Source: Candidatus Dormiibacterota bacterium (GTDB taxonomy: Bacteria; Vulcanimicrobiota; Vulcanimicrobiia; Vulcanimicrobiales; SCRA01). From it: a stretch of DNA of 64,000 bases. The stretch is taken from positions 123,198 to 187,197 of the forward strand of contig DATLUD010000008.1 in NCBI GenBank assembly GCA_035533275.1, read 5' to 3'. Positions within the stretch are counted from its first letter, which is position 1; every line of letters begins with the position of its first letter. A program made the translations under genes and the position numbers. Positions 988 to 38,673 of this stretch are shown here, piece by piece. The notes beneath the pieces are model-generated. The model had not been told where the DNA came from. It made no database searches and was given only the letters and a program-made list of their open reading frames with translations.

Positions 988-2262
988 ATGAAGATTCACC
1001 TCGCGTACGGACGCGCCGGCATCGACGCCGAGCTGCCCGACTCCGCCGTCGTCATCGAGCCGGTCGACGCGCCGCCTCTGCCGGACGAGCGCGCCGCCGT
1101 CGTCGCCGGTTTCCGCTCGCCGATCGGCTCGCGTCCGCTGCGCGAGATCGTCGGCGCCGGCGAGAGCGTCTGCATCGTCACCTCGGACATCACGCGCGCC
1201 ACGCCGAACGAGCGCCTCATCCCGTGGATCCTCGACGAGCTCGCGCACGTGCCGGCCCAGCAGATCGTCGTGCTGATCGGCACGGGATCCCACCGCGGGC
1301 AGACACCCGAGGAGATCGAGCAGATGTTCGGCGCGCAGACGGCGCGGCGCGTGCGCATCGTGAACCACGACGCCCTCCAGCTCGACGAGACGGCCGTCGT
1401 GGGCACCACCGCCGAGGGGCAGATTGCGCGGCTCAACCGGCACTGGGTCGAGGCCGACAAGCGTATCGTCGTCGGCTTCATCGAGCCGCACCTCTATGCC
1501 GGGTTCTCCGGAGGACCCAAGGGCATCATGCCCGCGATCGCCGACATCGACACCATCACCTGCTTCCACAACGCGCGCAAGATCTCCGATCCCGCCACCA
1601 CGTGGCTCAACCTCGACGGGAGCCCGGTGCAACAGATGGCGCGCGAGGTGGCGGCGATGTGCCCGCCGGACTTCTGCGTCAACGTCACGCTCAATCGCGA
1701 CAAGGCGATCACGGGCGTCTTCTGCGGTCACTATCTCGAGGCGCACCGCAAGGGCTGCGACTTCTGCCGCGAGACCGCTTCGCGCCCCATGCCCGAGCGC
1801 TTCGACGTGGTGGTCACCACCAACGGCGGGTACCCGCTCGACCAGAACCTCTACCAGTCGATCAAGGGGCTCACCGCGGCGATGGGCATCGTCAAGCAGG
1901 GGGGCACCATCGTGCTGGCGTGCGAGTGCAGCGACGGTCTCCCCGACCACGGCAACTTCAAGGAGCTCATCCGCAGCCGCGCGACCGCGCACGACCTGAT
2001 GCAGATGATCCTGACGCCGGGCTTCAAGGCGTTCGACCAGTGGAGCGCGCAGAGCATGGCTCAGGTGCTCCTGCACGCGAAGGTGCACATCAAGACCGCG
2101 CTGCACGACGACGTCGTTCGCTCGGCGCTGCTGCAGCCGATCCATGACGTGAGCGAGGCCGTGCGCGCCGCCATGCAGGCGGCCGGCCCGCGCGCCACGA
2201 TCGCGGTGCTCCCCGACGGGCCGTACACGGTGCCGTTCGTCGGCGCGGAGAGCGCGATCTGA
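988..2262 (+). CDS. larA: LarA-like nickel-pincer-dependent 2-hydroxyacid racemase/epimerase (DUF2088 family)
   Basis: Same frame as ORF 346..2262. ATG at 988 has GGAGGA 7 nt upstream. Starts MKIHLAYGRAGIDAELP. Carries GTGSHRG and EPHLYAGFSGGPKG motifs, the His and cofactor-binding Lys regions of lactate racemase. Confidence 0.85.
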   Translation: MKIHLAYGRAGIDAELPDSAVVIEPVDAPPLPDERAAVVAGFRSPIGSRPLREIVGAGESVCIVTSDITRATPNERLIPWILDELAHVPAQQIVVLIGTGSHRGQTPEEIEQMFGAQTARRVRIVNHDALQLDETAVVGTTAEGQIARLNRHWVEADKRIVVGFIEPHLYAGFSGGPKGIMPAIADIDTITCFHNARKISDPATTWLNLDGSPVQQMAREVAAMCPPDFCVNVTLNRDKAITGVFCGHYLEAHRKGCDFCRETASRPMPERFDVVVTTNGGYPLDQNLYQSIKGLTAAMGIVKQGGTIVLACECSDGLPDHGNFKELIRSRATAHDLMQMILTPGFKAFDQWSAQSMAQVLLHAKVHIKTALHDDVVRSALLQPIHDVSEAVRAAMQAAGPRATIAVLPDGPYTVPFVGAESAI

Positions 2263-2304
2263 TCGCCCCTTCGTAGGGAAGCGCTGACGACGTCCCAGCA
2301 TCGC

Positions 2305-2449
2305 CAAGCGGGCAGGGCACGTCTCTTGAGGGGCGCTCCGACATCGGCCCGGAGCCACGATGGCGAGAGGGCCGATGCGGCGCGAGCAGGAGCGGCACAT
2401 GGATGTGCCGCGACGAGCGTCCCCGAGGGAGGCGTGCCCTGCCCGCTTG
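2305..2449 (+). repeat. Structured intergenic repeat, copy 1 (candidate ncRNA / 3'-UTR element): 17-bp closing stem, inner stem and two hairpins
   Basis: Closing stem caagcgggcagggcacg (2305-2321) pairs perfectly with cgtgccctgcccgcttg (2433-2449). Hairpin catcggccc/gggccgatg lies at 2342-2377. Hairpin gcggcaca-UGGA-tgtgccgc lies at 2392-2411. The 100-nt core 2328-2427 is 87/100 identical to the reverse complement of 38506-38605. Confidence 0.8.
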
Positions 2450-2487
2450 ACTACGCCGACATGACGTAGACCAGCGATTCCGGTGGG

Positions 2488-4658: not shown

Positions 4659-6335
4659 CTACCGCGGCGCAAACCCCGCCGGGGGCCTCGACTCCTCTCC
4701 GGGTACGGCCACGGGGGTGATGCCCAGCGAGCCGCACGACATCGGCGCGGGGAAGGTGTCAACCACCCGGCTCGGGATCTCAGCCGCCGCGGCGGGAATC
4801 GGCGGCTTGGTGCCCGCCAGGCGCGCGGGGTCGAAGCCGCCGAGCAGGTCGGTGATGCGCGGGTTGGCGTCTCGCGGGCCTTCGGGAAGGTAGGGCTTCT
4901 CGTCGGGAAGCGAGGCAAGCGCAGGCAAGTCGAAGAGCTTTCCGAGGAACCGCGCGAACGACGCGTGGTCGCCCGGCGCGGAGACGGTCGCTCCCGATCT
5001 CGCGTACGGCGAGATCAGGATCAGCGGGACGCGCGGGCCGTCTCCGCAGGGATGGCCGTCGGGGCAACGCTCGAACTGCGGCGGCGGGACGTGATCGTAG
5101 AATCCCTCGGAGTCGTCCCAGGTGATCACGATCGCGGAGCTGCTCCAGTACGTGCTGTGGGCGATGGCGTCCACCACTTTGGCCACGAGCGCCTCGGAGA
5201 GCTGTGAGTCCGAGTACCCGGGATGGTCGTCGTCGCCGAGGAAATGCGCCTGTACCTGGGGGCTCCGGTTGGCCGGCTTCCATCCGAACGGATTGTGCGA
5301 GCCCCCCTTCACGAAGGTGACGCTGCGCGCGGGCAGCTCGCCGCGCTCCAGCACGGGGAAGATGTCCGTGAGATCGTGCACTCCGCTCCACAGCGGCTGA
5401 TTCTCGCGGATGTAGCCGAAGTACTGAGGCGAGTCGTGGTGCGAGACGTACCCCGGGTACTTCCCGGCGGCATTGGGTTTGAAGCCTTCCTCGTACCATC
5501 CCCACGGAATCGCCGGATGCCCCATGGCGGCCAACGCCTCCACGTCGTCCTTGACGTCACCGTCGTCGCGCTTGGCGCGCGTGGCGTTGCGGCCTTCGAG
5601 CGTGAGCAGGACGTTGGCGTACGTCTGATCGAGCTGCTTCTGCCGCGGCGCCTTCTCGTACGGCCCGAACGCCGGATCGAGATCGTTGACCACCGGCTCG
5701 CCCGGCCCTTGGGCGTCTTTGGCCACGCCCTCGTCGGGATGGCGCGCCAGCTGCGTCTGCCCCGTCTGCGCCGCGATCAGGTCCAGGTTGCCCGGCGTCG
5801 AGGGGCCGTACATCCCCTGGAAGATGTGGTCGTAGAGCGCGAACGTATGCGCATACTTCCAGAGGAACGGAATGGTGTCGCAGTCCTCGTGCGCCATCGT
5901 CAGCAAGCCGCGCCGCTGCGCCTGCGCGAAGGTCGCCCCCTGCGCGAGCATGCGAAACTCCTCCGCCGCGACGAACTGATCCATGTGGCCGTCGTTGACC
6001 TTCGTGATGAGGCTGGGCCGGCTGTGGTCGGCGTCGGCTTGATCGGGATCGGTGATGCGGAACGGCGTCACCCACTGCTCGCCGATCGGATCGTACTGCC
6101 GAAAGCCGTGCGTGCGCGCCGAGGGGTCGGCGAGATTGTCGGCGCCGGGAAACGTGCCGAAGTATGAGTCGAACGAACGATTCTCCTGATAGATCACGAA
6201 GACGTGCTTGACGCGCGCGCGCAGCTCGGCCAAGAGCCGCGCGTCGACCTGGGGCCGCTCCGCCGCCGGCGCCGGCTTCATCAGCCAGGGAGCGCAGATG
6301 GCCATCGCCATCGCGAAGGCAACGAGTCTCCGCAC
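4659..6335 (-). CDS. Secreted phosphoesterase family protein (phospholipase C / acid phosphatase AcpA-like, PF04185-type)
   Basis: ORF 4659..6335. GTG start with GAGGAGG 8 nt upstream. Signal peptide MRRLVAFAMAMAICAPWLMKPAPAAE. Family-typical VFVIYQENRSFDSYFGTFPGA motif. Confidence 0.85.
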   Translation of the reverse strand: MRRLVAFAMAMAICAPWLMKPAPAAERPQVDARLLAELRARVKHVFVIYQENRSFDSYFGTFPGADNLADPSARTHGFRQYDPIGEQWVTPFRITDPDQADADHSRPSLITKVNDGHMDQFVAAEEFRMLAQGATFAQAQRRGLLTMAHEDCDTIPFLWKYAHTFALYDHIFQGMYGPSTPGNLDLIAAQTGQTQLARHPDEGVAKDAQGPGEPVVNDLDPAFGPYEKAPRQKQLDQTYANVLLTLEGRNATRAKRDDGDVKDDVEALAAMGHPAIPWGWYEEGFKPNAAGKYPGYVSHHDSPQYFGYIRENQPLWSGVHDLTDIFPVLERGELPARSVTFVKGGSHNPFGWKPANRSPQVQAHFLGDDDHPGYSDSQLSEALVAKVVDAIAHSTYWSSSAIVITWDDSEGFYDHVPPPQFERCPDGHPCGDGPRVPLILISPYARSGATVSAPGDHASFARFLGKLFDLPALASLPDEKPYLPEGPRDANPRITDLLGGFDPARLAGTKPPIPAAAAEIPSRVVDTFPAPMSCGSLGITPVAVPGEESRPPAGFAPR

Positions 6336-6421
6336 GGTGCAACCTCCTCGAACGTCAAACGCCGCTGCTTGCCATCGAAGCAGTCAAGAACGGATTCTAC
6401 GTCGGCAAGGTTAGCAACAGA

Positions 6422-7036
6422 TCAAGGACCGGAGGCCCGCGCCGCCCACCGCCGGGCGCGCGCCAAGTCGTCCTCCGTGTCCACGTCGAGCAGTGCCCCG
6501 GGATCCTCCACGTCCACGCGCTCGACGGTGGCACCCTCGGCGTCGCGCAACGCCTGCAGAGACTCCCCATCGGGAAACGACTCCAAGCGTGGGCGCAGCT
6601 CCGGAGCAAAGATCACCGGGTGGGCCGGCGCCCCACCCACGACGGGAAAGACGATCTGCGCATCGCCCCTCCGGTACCGCTCGACCACGCGATCGACGAT
6701 CGCGGCCTCGAGGAACGGGCGGTCGGCCAGCACGATGCCCACGCCCCTTCCCGGCGCCGCAGCCTGCGCCCCCATGCGCGCGCTCGATGCCAAGCCCCGC
6801 TCGGGGTGGTTCTGCCGAACGACGGCCACCACGTGCTCGCGCGGCGCCAGCGCGCGCAGCAACTGCTCGCTGGAAGCGTTCACGACCACGATCGTGGGAT
6901 GGTGGGAGCAGGCGTCGAGCGCGCGCTCCAACAGCATCCGTCCGTCCACGTCGAGCGCGAGCTTGGGGCGCCCCATGCGCACCGCTCGCCCCGCCGCCAG
7001 AAGCACGAGGGTCACCTCGCGCGCCGGCGACGCCAT
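6422..7036 (-). CDS. mocA: MobA/MocA-like nucleotidyltransferase (molybdenum cofactor cytidylyltransferase family)
   Basis: ORF 6422..7036. LLAAGRAVRMGRPKLAL is the NTP_transf_3 signature. Its start overlaps the iclR stop (TGATG). Confidence 0.75.
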   Translation of the reverse strand: MASPAREVTLVLLAAGRAVRMGRPKLALDVDGRMLLERALDACSHHPTIVVVNASSEQLLRALAPREHVVAVVRQNHPERGLASSARMGAQAAAPGRGVGIVLADRPFLEAAIVDRVVERYRRGDAQIVFPVVGGAPAHPVIFAPELRPRLESFPDGESLQALRDAEGATVERVDVEDPGALLDVDTEDDLARARRWAARASGP

Positions 7037-10186: not shown

Positions 10187-11661
10187 CAGTACGCGTCTCC
10201 CGCGGCCGCGGCTTGATGGGCCATCTCCTGCATCTGCGCGAGCGTCTTCTGGCGCTTCCCGCCTTCGGCGCACCCCAGCCCGCTGGGGAGCACCTTGTAG
10301 GGGTTGAGCGTACGCTCGGGATCGCAGGCCTCGCGCAGCGCGTGGAACGCCTCCATGGTGGCGGGGGGAAACTGCAGGGCCATGTAGTCGCGCTTCTCCA
10401 TGCCGACGCCGTGCTCGCCGGTGATGCTGCCGCCGAGCTCGATGCAGGCGCGCAGGATCTCCTCGCCCGCCGCGATCGCACGTTTGGTCTGATCGGGGTC
10501 CCGCTCGTCGAAGAGGATCAGCGGATGCAGGTTGCCGTCGCCGGCGTGAAAGACGTTGGCCACGCGCAATCCCACCTTACGCGCCGCCTCCTCGACGCGG
10601 TCGAGCATCTCCGGCAAGCGCGTGCGGGGAATGACGCCGTCTTGCACGTAGTACGAGGGCCCGATGCGCCCCATCGCGCCGAAGGCCTTCTTGCGCCCTT
10701 TCCACAAGGCTTCGCGCTCCTCGTCGTTCTTGGCCAGGCGCACCTCGGTGGCCCCGCTCTCGCGGCAGATGCCGAGGACGCGCTGCGCGGCGCGATCGAT
10801 GCCGTCCTCCAATCCCTCCAGCTCCAGGAGCAAGACGGCGCCGGCGTCCACCGGGTAGCCCGCATGTGAGAACGCCTCGATGGCGCCGAGCGCGGGGTGA
10901 TCCATCATCTCCATCGCCGTAGGGATGATGCCGGAAGAGATCACGGCGCTCACCGCTTCGCTCGCGGCGCGGCACGACTCGAAGGCCACCATCAGCGTGC
11001 GCACCGTCTCCCACGTGCGCACGATGCGGCAGAGTATCTCCGTGACGATGCCGATGGTTCCCTCGCTTCCGCACATCACGCCGACGAGGTCGGGCCCCGG
11101 CGGATCGGGGGCGGGCGATCCGATGCGCACCCGCTCGCCGTCGGCGAGGACCACCTCGAGCGCCAGCACGTGATTCGTGGTGACGCCGCCGGTGAGCGTG
11201 TGCGGGCCGCCGCTGTTCTCCGCCACGTTGCCGCCGATGGTGCAGGCCCCTTGGCTCGAGGGGTCCGGCACGTATTGAAAGCCGAACGGAGCGAGGTGCT
11301 TGGAGAGGTCGAGGTTCACGAGGCCGGGCTGGACCGTGGCCGTGGCGTTCTCCAGATCGACGGCGAGGATCGCCTTCATCCTGGCGCTGGAGAGCACGAT
11401 CCCTCCGCACAGGGGAATCGAGCCCCCCGAGAGCCCGGTTCCCGCTCCGCGCGGCGTGACGTGCACGCCTTCGTCGTGACAGAGGCGCACCACGCGCGAG
11501 ATTTGCGCCGCGTCACGCGGGAGCACCACGGCGATCGGCAGCGCGCGGTCGATCGAGCCGTCGTACATGTAGAGACGAAGCTGCTGCGGGTCGGCCAGCA
11601 CGTCGGCGTCTCCCGCCACGGCGCGGAGTCGCTCGATGAACGCTGCGGATGACTCGGTCAC
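10186..11661 (-). CDS. glcD: Glycolate oxidase subunit GlcD (FAD-linked oxidase)
   Basis: ORF 10186..11700. I prefer the GTG at 11661 (VTESSAAFIERL) because GGAGGGA sits 7 nt upstream; GTG/ATG at 11700/11697 are alternatives. RGAGTGLSGG, PDPSS and HAGDGNLHP motifs are present. Confidence 0.9.
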   Translation of the reverse strand: MTESSAAFIERLRAVAGDADVLADPQQLRLYMYDGSIDRALPIAVVLPRDAAQISRVVRLCHDEGVHVTPRGAGTGLSGGSIPLCGGIVLSSARMKAILAVDLENATATVQPGLVNLDLSKHLAPFGFQYVPDPSSQGACTIGGNVAENSGGPHTLTGGVTTNHVLALEVVLADGERVRIGSPAPDPPGPDLVGVMCGSEGTIGIVTEILCRIVRTWETVRTLMVAFESCRAASEAVSAVISSGIIPTAMEMMDHPALGAIEAFSHAGYPVDAGAVLLLELEGLEDGIDRAAQRVLGICRESGATEVRLAKNDEEREALWKGRKKAFGAMGRIGPSYYVQDGVIPRTRLPEMLDRVEEAARKVGLRVANVFHAGDGNLHPLILFDERDPDQTKRAIAAGEEILRACIELGGSITGEHGVGMEKRDYMALQFPPATMEAFHALREACDPERTLNPYKVLPSGLGCAEGGKRQKTLAQMQEMAHQAAAAGDAY

Positions 11662-25174: not shown

Positions 25175-26070
25175 CGGTGCTGACAACGACGAACTCCTAC
25201 GACACCGCGCTGCGGCGGCTGGAGCTGCTGAGCGCCGAAGATGGTCCCGAGATTGGAGGCGGCTCGGGTACGCGCGCGCTGCTTCACGGCCGGCGGACGC
25301 GAGGCGCGCTCCTGCTCCTCCACGGCTTGGCTTCCGCGCCGCCGCAGTTCGCGCTGCTCGGCGAGCGCCTCCATGCGCGCGGCTGGAACGTGCTGATTCC
25401 GCGTCTTCCGCACCATGGCCACGCCGACCCGATGACGACGTCGCTGGCAGATCTCACGGCGGACGACCTGCGCGCGGCGGCCGCGGAGGCGCTCGCCATC
25501 ACCGCGGGCTTGGGCGAGCGGGTGACGGTAGCCGGCTTCTCGATGGGCGGCACGCTGAGCGCGTGGCTGGCGCACCATCGCCATGAGGTCGAGCATGCGG
25601 TCGCCATCTCGCCTTTCCTCGGCGTCTCCCTCCTTCCCGCGGGAACCGGCGGCCTGCTCGCGCACGCGCTCCGCCGCTTGCCCAACCGCTTTCTCTGGTG
25701 GGATCCCCTGCTGCGCGAGCGTCAGCGCCTCACCCCGCACGGCTATCCGCGCTTCGCGACGCGTGCGGCCGCGGCCGTGCTGACGCTGGCCGAGGCGACA
25801 CTGCGCGGCGCCCGCGCCGGGGCGCCGGCCGCGCGCCGCATCACGGTGGTCGCCCATCGGCGTGAGCCCGCCTGCAACACGCGCGACGCGCTCGCCCTCG
25901 TCGAGGCCTGGCGGCGTAACCCGAACGCCGACGTGCGTGTTGAGATGCTGACCGGCCTGCCGTCGCTCCACGACATCATCGAGCCGGGGCGCCCCCAGAC
26001 GCCGGTCTCGCTCGTCTACCCGCGGCTCATCGAGATCATCGACGCGCCGCACGGCAAGGAAGCACGATGA
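25171..26070 (+). CDS. Alpha/beta hydrolase (esterase/lipase-type)
   Basis: Inner ATG (MTVLTTTNSYD) of ORF 25078..26070; the annotated N-terminal extension has low GC3. Nucleophile elbow GFSMGG. HGLASAP oxyanion region. Confidence 0.8.
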   Translation: MTVLTTTNSYDTALRRLELLSAEDGPEIGGGSGTRALLHGRRTRGALLLLHGLASAPPQFALLGERLHARGWNVLIPRLPHHGHADPMTTSLADLTADDLRAAAAEALAITAGLGERVTVAGFSMGGTLSAWLAHHRHEVEHAVAISPFLGVSLLPAGTGGLLAHALRRLPNRFLWWDPLLRERQRLTPHGYPRFATRAAAAVLTLAEATLRGARAGAPAARRITVVAHRREPACNTRDALALVEAWRRNPNADVRVEMLTGLPSLHDIIEPGRPQTPVSLVYPRLIEIIDAPHGKEAR

Positions 26071-26642
26071 TTCGCTACGCGCACACGCTAGACTCGCCGA
26101 TCGGGCCGCTGGTCGTTGTGGTCGGCCCCGACGGCGCGCTCACGGAGATCGAGTTCGGGCGCACGCACCACAACCGGCTCTTCGAGCGGATGGAGCGCGC
26201 GCAGATCGGGCTGGAGCAGGATCCGCGCCGCACCGATCCGGTAGCGCGCCAGCTCGACGAGTACTTCGCCGGGGTGCGCCGCGCGTTCGATCTCGCGCTC
26301 GCTCCGGAGGGCACGCCCTTTCAACTGCGCGTCTGGGAGGAGCTGCGCCGCATCCCATACGGCGTCACCACCACCTACGGCAAGATCGCCGAGCGCATCG
26401 GCAAGCCCACCGCCTCGCGCGCCGTTGGCCTGGCCAACGGCTCGAATCCGATCCCCATCGTCGTGCCCTGCCACCGCGTGATCGGCAGCAGCGGGGCGCT
26501 GACGGGCTTCGGCGGCGGCATCGACGTCAAGGCGGCGCTGCTGGCGCTCGAGAGCGGCCAGCTGGCCTGGCTCGACCTGGTCGCTCCCGCCGCGAAGAGT
26601 GAAGGAATCGCCGATCTACGTTCAGATCAAGGGATGACGTAG
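26067..26642 (+). CDS. ogt: Methylated-DNA--protein-cysteine methyltransferase
   Basis: ORF 26067..26642. ATGA overlap with the hydrolase. Active-site PCHRV. TTYGKIAERIG DNA-binding region. Confidence 0.9.
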   Translation: MIRYAHTLDSPIGPLVVVVGPDGALTEIEFGRTHHNRLFERMERAQIGLEQDPRRTDPVARQLDEYFAGVRRAFDLALAPEGTPFQLRVWEELRRIPYGVTTTYGKIAERIGKPTASRAVGLANGSNPIPIVVPCHRVIGSSGALTGFGGGIDVKAALLALESGQLAWLDLVAPAAKSEGIADLRSDQGMT

Positions 26643-26653
26643 AGCAGAGATTC

Positions 26654-27520
26654 CTAGCGCAAGCTGAGGATGTCGGCGAGATTGGCCTTGGGATCGAGCA
26701 CGGGCTCGATCTTCCCCTCGCCCGAGGTCATGAGCGACGAGACGCCTGGGCCGTGGCCGGCGACCGCGGAGGCGCCGTGGACCACGACGCCCACGGAGAT
26801 CGCGCCCGTCTTGTAGATGCGCCCATAGGAATGCTCGGCGTTCTGGATCGCCACGATGTCGCCCAGCCGGATGTCGGCGAGGCCGTACTCCTCGACGATG
26901 TCGCGGGAGAACATCTGAATGTCGTAATCGCCGCGGTAGACGTTGTCGCGGCCGATGCCGCTGCCCATGACCGCCGCCGGCACGATCTTGGCCACGCGCA
27001 CCCGCAGGCGATCGCCGGCCATCTCGCAGCCAAGCGCGTCGAAGAGGTCGGGGTCCAGGTTGAAGAGACGCACCGCGGGAGCGTCCGGCAGCGCGAGGCC
27101 CTGACCCACGCTGCGCACCGCGATCTTGTCCCCGACGGCGAGCTTCTCGAGCACGTCCTGGGGAAAGTCAATCATCACGTGCTCGATGCCGCCGTGCTTT
27201 CCGGTCACCACGCCGGTCGCGCCCTTGGCCTCACCGCTCATCACCGTGGCCCGGTTGCCCACGCACGAGAGCAGGCAGAAGCCGATGTTCTCCTTCTCGT
27301 CCTTCGCGCGCGCGCTCACCGCCGGCTCCACATGATCGGCTACCCAGCCGAGCGCCGGGTCGCCGACGCGGACGTTGAGGTTGATGCTTCCCATGCCGGG
27401 CACGATCACCGCACGGCCGTCGGCGGTAATGTCGTATGGGTTGGGGCCGAAGGCGGCAGGGGCGACCTCCCCGCTCACGGCGACGGTCAGCAGACGGTCT
27501 CGGTTCGTGCGCAAACCCAT
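26654..27520 (-). CDS. DUF4438 family protein (288 aa)
   Basis: Inner ATG (MGLRTNRDRLL) of ORF 26654..27790. The upstream extension is antisense to queD. The pattern TN..LL..V.G...P...PY.I..DG...PG.G.I..NVRVGD...W..DHVEP matches my recollection of DUF4438. Confidence 0.7.
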   Translation of the reverse strand: MGLRTNRDRLLTVAVSGEVAPAAFGPNPYDITADGRAVIVPGMGSINLNVRVGDPALGWVADHVEPAVSARAKDEKENIGFCLLSCVGNRATVMSGEAKGATGVVTGKHGGIEHVMIDFPQDVLEKLAVGDKIAVRSVGQGLALPDAPAVRLFNLDPDLFDALGCEMAGDRLRVRVAKIVPAAVMGSGIGRDNVYRGDYDIQMFSRDIVEEYGLADIRLGDIVAIQNAEHSYGRIYKTGAISVGVVVHGASAVAGHGPGVSSLMTSGEGKIEPVLDPKANLADILSLR

Positions 27521-30797: not shown

Positions 30798-32258
30798 ATG
30801 GAAAAGGGCTCCCGCGAGCGGAGTGAAACGGAGCGAGTGGGAAAGGATCTCATCAGGGACCTGGTCGAGGCTCTCGGTCCGGAGTCGGTGCGCCATGCGC
30901 CCGAGGACCTGCGAGTCTACGCATACGACGGCTACCGCTTGGGGGACGTGCTTCCCTCGGCCGCCGTCCTGCCCACCGACGCGAAGGAGGCGGCGCGTGC
31001 CGTGCGCATCTGCCGCGACCACGGCGTTCCGATCGTGGCGCGCGGCTCGGGCACCGGTCTCTGCGGTGCCGCCGTGCCCGAAGACGGCGGGGTCGTCTTC
31101 TCCTTCGCGCGCATGAACCGGGTGCTGGAGATCGACCAGCGCCGCCGCCGGGCGCGCGTGCAGCCCGGCCTCATCAACGCGCGGCTCTCCGAGGCGACCA
31201 AACCGAACGGGCTCTTCTACGCGCCCGATCCCTCCAGCCAGAAGATCTCGTCGATCGGCGGAAACGTGGGAACCAACGCCGGCGGACCGCATTGCCTCTC
31301 CTACGGAGTGACCACCAACAACGTGCTGGGACTGGAGTTCGTGACCAACGACGGCGAGGTGCTGCGCTGCCGGCAGGACGACGCCGGGTACGATCTCACG
31401 GGCATCCTGGTCGGCAGCGAGGGAACGCTGGCCATGGTCACCGAGATCGAGGTTCGCCTGCGCCACCTGCCCGAGGAGACGCGCGTATTCCTGGCCGTCT
31501 ACGACTCGATCGAGGCCGCCTGCGAGGCGGTGAGCGAGATCATCGGTCACGGCTTGGTGCCCACCGCGCTCGAGATGATGGACCGCGTGATGATCCGCGC
31601 CGTGGAGGAGGCCTTCCACGCCGGCTATCCGCAAGACGCGGCGGCCGTGCTGCTGGTGGAGGTGGCCGGGTCGCGCGAGGGCGCCGACGAGGCGGAGCAC
31701 GCCATCGCGCGCATCGCCAAGGGCGGCGGCGCGCTGACGTGGCGCACCGCGCGCACGCAGGCCGAGCGCGATGCGCTCTGGGCGGCGCGCAAGGGCGCCG
31801 CGGGCGCGATGGGGCGCCTCGCGCCGAACTACTACATCCAAGACGCCACGGTGCCGCGCACGCGCCTCCCCGATGCGCTGCGCGCCGTGGAGGAGGTAGC
31901 CGCCCACTACGGCATAACCGTCGCCAACGTCTTTCACGCGGGCGACGGCAACCTCCATCCGCTCCTGCCCTTCGACCGCCGCGACCCGCGGCAGGTCGAG
32001 GCGGTCGTGCGCGCGGGCACGGAGATCCTCAAGCGCTGCATCGACCTGGGCGGCACCATCTCCGGCGAGCACGGCATCGGCTACGAGAAGCGCGAAGCCC
32101 TGCCGCTGGTGTTCTCCACCGAGGACCTGGCGGCGATGGTGCGCCTGCGCGAGACCTTCGACCCGCGCACGCTCTTCAATCCCGGCAAGATCTTCCCGAG
32201 CGGGGCGTCCTGCGCCGAGGTCCGTCCCTCGCTGGCGCGCACGGGAGGGACGCCGTGA
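30798..32258 (+). CDS. FAD-linked oxidase, GlcD-like (second paralogue)
   Basis: Inner ATG (MEKGSRERS) of ORF 30612..32258 with GGAGGG 6 nt upstream. RGSGTGLCGAA, PDPSSQ and HAGDGNLHP motifs. Paralogous to 10186..11661. Confidence 0.85.
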   Translation: MEKGSRERSETERVGKDLIRDLVEALGPESVRHAPEDLRVYAYDGYRLGDVLPSAAVLPTDAKEAARAVRICRDHGVPIVARGSGTGLCGAAVPEDGGVVFSFARMNRVLEIDQRRRRARVQPGLINARLSEATKPNGLFYAPDPSSQKISSIGGNVGTNAGGPHCLSYGVTTNNVLGLEFVTNDGEVLRCRQDDAGYDLTGILVGSEGTLAMVTEIEVRLRHLPEETRVFLAVYDSIEAACEAVSEIIGHGLVPTALEMMDRVMIRAVEEAFHAGYPQDAAAVLLVEVAGSREGADEAEHAIARIAKGGGALTWRTARTQAERDALWAARKGAAGAMGRLAPNYYIQDATVPRTRLPDALRAVEEVAAHYGITVANVFHAGDGNLHPLLPFDRRDPRQVEAVVRAGTEILKRCIDLGGTISGEHGIGYEKREALPLVFSTEDLAAMVRLRETFDPRTLFNPGKIFPSGASCAEVRPSLARTGGTP

Positions 32259-38450: not shown

Positions 38451-38487
38451 GCGACTCTCCGATCTTTGTCATCCCGGCTCTGCTACG

Positions 38488-38624
38488 CGGACGGGACGAG
38501 CCTCTCTCGGGGCCACTCGTCGGCGCACATCCCGGTGCGCCTCCTGTTCGCGCCGCATCGGCCCTCTCGACATCATATCTCCGGGCCGATGTCGGAGCGC
38601 CCCTCGTGAGGCTCGTCCCGTCCG
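38488..38624 (-). repeat. Structured intergenic repeat, copy 2 (inverted relative to copy 1)
   Basis: Closing stem cggacgggacgagcctc (38488-38504) pairs perfectly with gaggctcgtcccgtccg (38608-38624). The core 38506-38605, reverse-complemented, is 87/100 identical to 2328-2427 with compensatory changes in the stems. Confidence 0.8.
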
Positions 38625-38673
38625 TGCAGCGCCTTGGTCTCGTGTAGATCGGCGAGGCCCGAGCGCGCTCGAT

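Follow-up and report, generated by a model that had tools for sequence, protein, structure and literature searches.

The hairpin at positions 38488-38624 of the window (the whole 64,000-nt stretch of DNA that was analysed) is the core of an interspersed palindromic repeat of about 207 nt, a small non-coding element that is probably mobile. We consider it quite likely that this copy, called copy 2, belongs to a hitherto undescribed MITE/REP-like family of non-coding interspersed palindromic repeats, which spread as DNA and was tolerated at the 3' ends of genes. The host is a soil bacterium of an uncultured, high-G+C lineage labelled Dormibacteraeota/Eremiobacteraeota. The element was filed as a repeat family because of its terminal inverted repeats, its size classes, its dispersal, its presence or absence among relatives, and its restriction to 3' spacers with an excess of convergent ones. 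Mobility was inferred only from presence/absence and dispersal, because no transposase or RAYT-like gene was found in the approximately 0.45 Mb sampled; the same DNA held no IS200-like TnpA, and no transposase recurred beside the copies.

An earlier note on this DNA had described a 17-bp GC closing stem and a second occurrence of the element, copy 1, and both were borne out: the stem is perfect, and copy 1 lies in inverted orientation at 2309-2446. According to the repeat finder, copies 1 and 2 form an inverted repeat of 172 nt, and no longer one exists in the window. The interval that it delimited is real, but the full element reaches 38452-38659 (Table 1) and occupies nearly all of the 223 nt that separate the pepP stop (38450) from the SDR stop (38674). 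Copy 2 is made up of terminal inverted repeats, a long stem and an apical three-way junction, into which helix P2 (GGGGC/GCCCC) opens. When the flanks were included in the folds, the stem ran further outward, and its conserved lower P1 was GCCAAGCGG / CCGCTTGGC. Most copies end in a terminal inverted repeat of approximately 17 nt, GGAATCNCCGATCTACG ... CGTAGATCGGNGATTCC, and the full elements were 205-212 nt long. Pairwise alignment of copies 1 and 2 showed a near-identical interior with common blocks of 27 and 22 nt; most positions of their closing stems differ, yet each stem is self-complementary. The RNA minimum free energy of copy 2 was -95.4 kcal/mol against a shuffle mean of -58.1 (z = -9.1), and none of 200 dinucleotide shuffles was as good, while copy 1 (2309-2446, + strand) reached -105.3 kcal/mol (z = -11.1).

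Table 1 Positions of the element, its parts and other family members. Coordinates of the first nine rows are those of the window; the L handles denote loci outside it
Feature	Coordinates	Strand	Basis or remarks
Interval of the earlier note	38488-38624	-	Perfect 17-bp G+C-rich closing stem (upper P1) and core; 137 nt
Copy 2, full element (about 208 nt)	38452-38659	-	Terminal-inverted-repeat pair search, arm HMM matches, full-length fold, covariance-model match 38481-38630 (160.3 bits)
Copy 2, apical module	38509-38603	-	Consensus structure, pair counts, coordinate map
Copy 2, P3 arm	38550-38598	-	GGA/GAGA internal loop; tip hairpin 38569-38579
Copy 2, P5 arm	38515-38547	-	Invariant CAGGAG / CGACGAG internal loops
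Copy 2, 5' terminal inverted repeat	38643-38659	-	Sense GGCCTCGCCGATCTAC; family consensus GGAATCNCCGATCTACG
Copy 2, 3' terminal inverted repeat	38452-38468	-	Sense ...AGATCGGAGAGTCG; 1 nt from the pepP stop codon
Copy 1, full element	2275-2481	+	Covariance-model match 2303-2452 (159.4 bits), arm matches; core module 2330-2424
Third family member, arms-only 51-nt hairpin	26604-26654		GGAATCGCCGATCTACG...CGTAGAGCAGAGATTCC; arm HMMs
Hairpin-only form, larA site orthologous to copy 1	L060 7285-7392
Hairpin-only form, larA site orthologous to copy 1	L064 4276-4351
Hairpin-only form, larA site orthologous to copy 1	L066 1329-1422
Other apical content in family arms	L062 216-360		Two small hairpins; arm HMMs
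Other apical content in family arms	L038 1514-1620		GGGGCATGCCCC palindrome, equal to the joined upper P1 of full copies minus their core; arm HMMs
Convergent, uninformative on orientation	Both window copies, L057, L041/L037, L025, L030, L031		7 loci
Tandem, in the genes' sense	L034		Solute-binding gene then permease
Tandem, in the genes' sense	L055a		mnmE then mnmG
Tandem, antisense to both neighbours	L051		CCG-domain gene then FAD oxidoreductase
Tandem, antisense to both neighbours	L026		HNH gene then decarboxylase
Tandem, antisense to both neighbours	L055b

A spaced core pattern run over the JGI metagenomes returned 35 loci, 15 of which carried the element. All 15 outside loci came from three related metagenomes (Ga0307372, Ga0307373 and Ga0307374), which also contain the window's own contig; the outside copies represent one habitat only. 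The pattern was exact and missed the window's own JGI contig, so the copy number and diversity given here are lower bounds. Removal of duplicates left 13 distinct full copies and one partial variant, at no fewer than 14 distinct loci. The outside loci had approximately 69-70% G+C, their overlap with the window was confined to the element, and their neighbouring genes were unrelated, with none recurring among the sampled loci. The window gave no match to Rfam 15 at the gathering threshold over its whole length, and at E < 10 both copies gave only sub-threshold chance matches. The core 20-mer had 15 matches among 185,579 species-representative genomes, all of them by chance and with the rest of the element missing, and searches of viral contigs (two patterns), plasmids and phages (blastn) gave no match to the element. 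The taxonomic labels of the host conflict: the SDR protein is labelled Candidatus Dormibacteraeota, and the nearest named relatives of LarA are Eremiobacteraeota/Vulcanimicrobiaceae.

The terminal repeats GGAATCNCCGATCTACG / CGTAGATCGGNGATTCC were found at the ends of copy 1, copy 2, L026, L031, L038, L051, L060 and the third member of the window, and were degenerate or missing in L025, L030, L055a/b and L057. The genes on either side of the third member, ogt/MGMT and DUF4438, are convergent. A TAG (26640-26642) in the right arm of this member ends the reading frame of ogt (26067-26642), so that the last 13 or so ogt codons are encoded by the element, and the DUF4438 stop overlaps the last base of the element. 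Three size classes could be distinguished, namely arms only (51 nt), arms with a long stem (about 75-115 nt), and arms with the stem and the 95-nt three-way junction (about 207 nt). The mnmE-mnmG spacer of L055 carries two full elements head-to-head, 1207-1355 (-) and 1385-1534 (+), one of which is the most divergent copy found. Several copies in the alignment (L031, L034, L038 and L051) were mosaics, in which the helix variants of P3, P5 and P1 assort independently: the P3 variant GGGCC/GGCCC was present in all three P5 subfamilies, and in L031 a P5 and a P1 from different subfamilies were combined. This pattern of sequence variants suggests recombination or gene conversion between elements. 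The allele pair L041/L037 had 2 differences in the element vs 24 in 9.6 kb, which is uninformative on constraint after insertion. The partial copy L032 was considered as a longer, autonomous form in which a gene would replace P5, and proved to be a short divergent variant without an ORF. An internal peptide (AGGAG-N6-ATG in copy 1) was also rejected, as neither the ATG nor the reading frame was conserved; loop lengths vary by indels, and there is therefore no conserved ORF in the element. Elsewhere in the window, 10348-11097 and 31386-32135 share three collinear inverted-repeat segments of 62-123 nt, 71-84% complementary and approximately 21 kb apart, which are probably paralogous genes in opposite orientation and unrelated to the element.

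The consensus structure calculated by RNAalifold from 13 cores consisted of a long P1, a symmetric loop with tandem G-A, P2, and a three-way junction with the arms P3 and P5. The P3 arm has 14 bp and the GGA/GAGA internal loop, and the hairpin at its tip has an NGA loop; the P5 arm combines its two invariant internal loops with a 7-bp stem. Standard pairs occupied 93.7% of the cells in the 13 copies, both sides had changed in 31 of the 57 pairs, and not one of 500 shuffles reached any of the pairing or covariation measures; when the 3' partners were slid by 1-3 columns, pairing was only 33-43%. Covariation was seen in every helix. GGCCC/GGGCC of P3 was replaced by GGGCC/GGCCC, and by GCTCC/GGAGC in the partial copy, one position of the P3 tip had three pair types, P5 occurred as GCGGCAC, GGCGCAC and GGCCCAC, and the junction-proximal, long-range pair of columns 85-118 was A-U in 7 copies and G-C in 6. 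Few repeat elements would be expected to show such clean support by covariation. The alternative junction topology that RNAfold chose for copy 1 was equally well paired but had no covariation, and its GCGA hairpin was broken in 7 of 13 copies. The earlier note had counted a "G35-U" wobble in copy 2, which belongs to this alternative topology; in the supported topology this U is assigned to columns 85-118 and more probably pairs with A.

The most conserved part of the element was the apex, not the termini, and the unpaired positions there were invariant and purine-rich. The GGAG and AGGAG motifs, described before as exposed, were located in small purine-rich internal loops with tandem G-A and not in free single strands. 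Ribosome binding through AGGAG is unlikely, because its bases lie in these structured internal loops. Readings of the junction and loops as a hammerhead or a K-turn were checked by eye against the consensus motifs of these classes, and they misfitted the covariation-supported register. The core stretch 38550-38566 / 2369-2385 (GCCGATGCGGCGCGAAC) has an apparent likeness to GCCGGATGCGGCGTGAAC, the E. coli REP consensus. Its pairing partners differ, and the likeness is probably a coincidence.

Analysis of the two strands agreed with the strand bias that the earlier note had read from the wobble pairs: the sense strand folds better than the antisense strand. The complements of copies 1 and 2 reached only -90.7 and -88.6 kcal/mol as RNA, and in 12 of 13 copies the sense strand was the more stable of the two as RNA, with a mean difference of approximately 11 kcal/mol. 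Among paired cells there were 24 G-U vs 10 A-C, and a covariance model built from the family alignment gave 116-161 bits to the sense strands vs 18-42 bits to the antisense strands. When DNA energy parameters were used, the asymmetry was nearly gone (-55.7 vs -52.7 and -50.2 vs -49.6), and in folded single-stranded DNA G-T is likewise the most tolerated mismatch. The strand bias means that one strand matters; the RNA nature of that strand is not thereby established. The earlier proposal of an RNA with a defined sense strand, and not a cruciform, was upheld in its strand-biased, covarying fold, but the almost absent asymmetry under DNA parameters speaks against taking that bias as proof of RNA. 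A conserved, strand-biased fold with many compensatory changes is in any case more than a symmetric DNA palindrome.

By Pfam, the neighbours of copy 1 are larA (+, stop 2262) and, convergent with it, a Peripla_BP_6 solute-binding gene (-, stop 2488); copy 2 is likewise flanked by two convergent genes, the M24 aminopeptidase P gene pepP (+) and the SDR gene (-). The distances to the larA and SDR stops had been given correctly, but copy 2 is equally near the pepP and SDR stops, and copy 1 equally near those of the periplasmic-binding-protein gene and larA. Each copy is downstream of a gene on either strand, and therefore position cannot assign a sense strand. Over the family, the Pfam-confirmed contexts were 7 convergent, 5 tandem (2 sense and 3 antisense) and 0 divergent; every copy was downstream of at least one gene, and several directly abutted the TAG or TAA of a neighbour. 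The earlier note had proposed to check whether homologous elements always follow a gene in the same sense, with random orientation speaking against its reading, and the tandem copies were indeed of mixed orientation, in a small sample (n = 5). No T-tract terminator signature was found on either strand around either window copy, which does not fit the intrinsic terminator that had been suggested, and no sigma-70-like promoter was seen in or beside these copies. A read-through transcript would still carry a very stable 3' hairpin, so this part of the proposed 3'-end role stands, but it is not specific to larA or SDR. At L026, a conserved 194-aa HNH-domain gene (5895-6479, -) ends exactly at the right terminal repeat of the element and shows no sign of mobility. 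As a candidate partner of that element it was rejected, being a conserved single gene downstream of pdxS/pdxT, on the same strand and without a second flanking repeat.

To follow presence and absence of the element, we compared both sites with those of relatives. In three relatives with an SDR 74-77% identical, the order of the whole neighbourhood was kept (malic enzyme, response regulator, ABC transporter, beta-lactamase-fold protein, trxB-like, SDR and convergent pepP), and their SDR/pepP spacers were 40, 16 and 7 nt without the element, vs 223 nt in the window. The element is thus an insertion and not part of the trxB-epimerase operon. At the larA site, two relatives (LarA 84% identical) had empty spacers of 0 and 4 nt, and three others (LarA 88, 83 and 82%) had spacers of 114, 76 and 94 nt with a hairpin. 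These hairpins have the outer arms of copy 1, with a simple TCTTGAC loop in place of the three-way junction; that of L064 is without the left arm, and the larA stop directly abuts its stem. A point against the repeat reading is that no target-site duplication was found at the element ends, as there was no consistent direct repeat at the ends of 11 copies. A TA target duplication of the IS630/mariner-like kind was rejected, since TA abuts only one end in most copies and usually belongs to the stop codon of a neighbour.

Several other explanations were weighed against the repeat family. The earlier note had read the structure as an RNA that acts in cis and in one sense only, with which larA and the trxB-SDR operon would end, and which would be a terminator or exonuclease block together with a protein- or ribosome-binding module. 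Such an RNA would account for the better sense fold in 12 of 13 copies, the excess of G-U over A-C and the strong covariation, and it fits the position of every copy behind at least one gene, above all that of L034, which lies in sense between binding-protein and permease genes, a classic site of differential mRNA stabilisers. But both window copies lie in convergent gaps, the family is dispersed beside unrelated genes, three of five tandem copies (L051, L026 and L055b) are antisense, and the same operon is without the element in three relatives; the lack of a T-tract and the structured position of AGGAG also count against it, and we consider this explanation unlikely. An independently transcribed sRNA family is very unlikely in our view. 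Here RNase III would cut the stalk and the released junction would bind a protein, for example as a CsrA/Rsm-type sponge. The CsrA SELEX consensus is RUACARGGAUGU, and both arm tips are often ACA-GGA-UGU, which is near to it but only a lead; the invariant purine-rich unpaired positions and a fold that is strand-specific whatever the neighbouring transcription also agree with an sRNA. When CsrB/RsmZ-type RNAs, with their several invariant GGA motifs in hairpin loops, were taken for comparison, NGA loops were seen at both tips and GGA was not invariant: it occurs in 8 of 13 P3 tips, with CGA or UGA in the other 5, and in 11 of 13 P5 loops, with CGA in 2. The copies abut or overlap stop codons, which leaves no room for a promoter, and none of sigma-70-like type was seen; csrA was absent from the approximately 0.45 Mb sampled, a sample too small to inform. 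It is even less probable, to a degree that we would call highly improbable, that the element is purely a DNA palindrome, a cruciform or a recombination or replication site whose arms are kept by hairpin-templated repair (quasipalindrome correction) without selection on a single-strand fold. Inverted repeats can acquire seemingly compensatory changes through template switching, the two strands are nearly equal in folding under DNA parameters, and the mosaic copies suggest frequent conversion. Against this, the apex is not palindromic and has three different helices, each with its own covariation, as well as the long-range pair 85-118; the G-U excess, the conserved strand-specific unpaired bases and covariance-model scores of 160 vs 40 bits point the same way.

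The origin of the apex has to be weighed separately. The 95-nt junction module could be a separate, younger unit that entered the apical loops of older hairpins by insertion or gene conversion, and the "compensatory" outer stem would then be largely a pre-existing host hairpin. We regard this nested arrangement as possible, though doubtful. Arms-only members are present in the window and in relatives, family arms carry other apical contents (L062 and L038), the core is near-identical among copies with mostly differing stems, and it was found only in one metagenome set, with its 20-mer in none of the 185,579 species-representative genomes beyond chance. In the LarA tree one hairpin-only lineage was basal and two others were sisters of the window, and parsimony needed 3 events for gain of the core vs 4 for its repeated loss, but the tree is weak (56% at the key node). 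The TCTTGA loop of the hairpin-only forms is, moreover, the conserved 5' flank of the core at unrelated loci, where it pairs with GAGGGA on the core side, and this pairing fits deletion of the core at least about as well; the core was never seen in a hairpin outside the family, and we know of no insertion mechanism for a 95-nt non-coding module. With the same reserve, the junction module might be a self-spreading passenger in the loops of older hairpins, or a protein-binding RNA recruited by the host on a mobile hairpin. If true, either would mean a new route for the proliferation of a small structured RNA or ssDNA in a bacterial genome.

The repeat family that we prefer resembles several known classes. 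In the Bacillus cereus group, the non-coding repeat bcr1 is dispersed, some 150-200 nt long and present in some but not all of the related genomes; it is transcribed and has a predicted cruciform-like RNA fold of two stem-loops with compensatory changes (PMC3184786, citing Okstad 2004 and Klevan 2007). The new family is like bcr1 in being an interspersed non-coding repeat with presence/absence and a branched predicted RNA fold kept by compensatory changes. bcr1 has 5-bp terminal direct repeats, and none were found in the new family, whose branched apex stands on a stem of 40-50 bp; the terminal inverted repeats of this family are conserved, and it has arms-only forms. Sequence similarity to bcr1 is not expected, since phylum and G+C content differ. 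REPs, too, are found mainly 3' of coding regions, in convergent and tandem gaps (PMC3733652), and are considered to work as 3' hairpins in RNA (PMC3733652, PMC3116915). The new family shares with REPs and REPINs the G+C-rich extragenic palindromes 3' of convergent or tandem genes, the long hairpins and the lack of target-site duplications (PMC3733652, PMC3116915), and its 7 convergent, 5 tandem and 0 divergent loci agree with REP locations. A REP unit has 20-40 bp and, at one end, a GTAG or CGTC tag that is unpaired (PMC3733652), whereas the smallest unit of the new family is 51 nt and its GTAG/CTAC takes part in the pairing of the terminal repeats. In REPINs conservation is highest in the REPs that form the stem and not in the loop, in the new family it is highest in the apex with its three-way junction, and no RAYT was seen in the approximately 0.45 Mb. 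This modular architecture with a conserved apex is the reverse of the usual conservation pattern of MITEs and REPINs. As in MITEs, the element has conserved terminal inverted repeats and is small, non-coding and multi-copy, with presence/absence (SDR/pepP empty in 3 relatives, larA empty in 2), but it differs from them in the target-site duplication.

Among Correia elements, too, there are complete and internally shortened versions, and RNase III cuts them (PMC2649163). Both Correia (CREE/NEMIS) and ERIC elements are similar to the new family in their size of 100-160 bp, their terminal inverted repeats and their full and internally deleted or expanded sizes; they are co-transcribed with neighbours, form long RNase III-cleavable hairpins and affect mRNA stability (PMC2649163, PMC2229807). 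They differ in that Correia has TA duplications, IHF sites and promoter-forming ends and ERIC has no conserved branched apex, and neither has a sequence relationship to the new family or a reported covariation-supported junction. Like an intrinsic terminator, the element is a G+C-rich stem-loop directly after stops that could serve both convergent genes; in contrast, the family is without a T/U tract on either strand, and at approximately 140-208 nt with a branched apex it is far beyond a terminator hairpin. A retron ncRNA (msr-msd) was rejected, as the neighbours are larA, the solute-binding protein, pepP and SDR, with no downstream reverse-transcriptase gene. The anatomy is shared with bcr1, REP and Correia elements, and the element was therefore filed among the small palindromic repeats that lie dispersed in many bacterial genomes. 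It represents a new family of this established kind and not a gene-specific 3'-UTR regulator.

From the arrangement of the copies, the following mechanism can be proposed. The elements would spread as DNA, through a transposase-like activity and/or gene conversion between copies, and would persist only where promoters are undisturbed. Read-through from either side would add a stable stem-loop of some 40-50 bp to the transcript, and this stem-loop would most likely be a 3'-end barrier or processing site, acting as an exonuclease block, as an RNase III-type substrate or in non-canonical termination. We infer that such a barrier or processing site in either orientation is the most economical functional consequence of the element. 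The constrained part would be the strand-biased, covarying apical junction with its invariant purine-rich loops, most likely a recognition module for a protein that acts on a folded single strand (RNA, or ssDNA during mobilisation). Given the mixed orientation to transcription, the strand-specific constraint is not explained by passive read-through. Three accounts of the conservation of the apex, which do not exclude one another, remain: a recognition module for copying, a younger module in the loops of older hairpins, and homogenisation by gene conversion.

For annotation, the family is a warning that two copies are insufficient for calling a gene-specific 3'-UTR regulator or a riboswitch-like RNA. 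Its elements abut or even supply the stop codons of their neighbours, as ogt ends in one. It also offers a tractable case for asking how a repeat keeps a strand-specific fold when transcription would cross it in both senses, and it adds a well-defined structured repeat family to a barely studied, uncultured phylum-level lineage.
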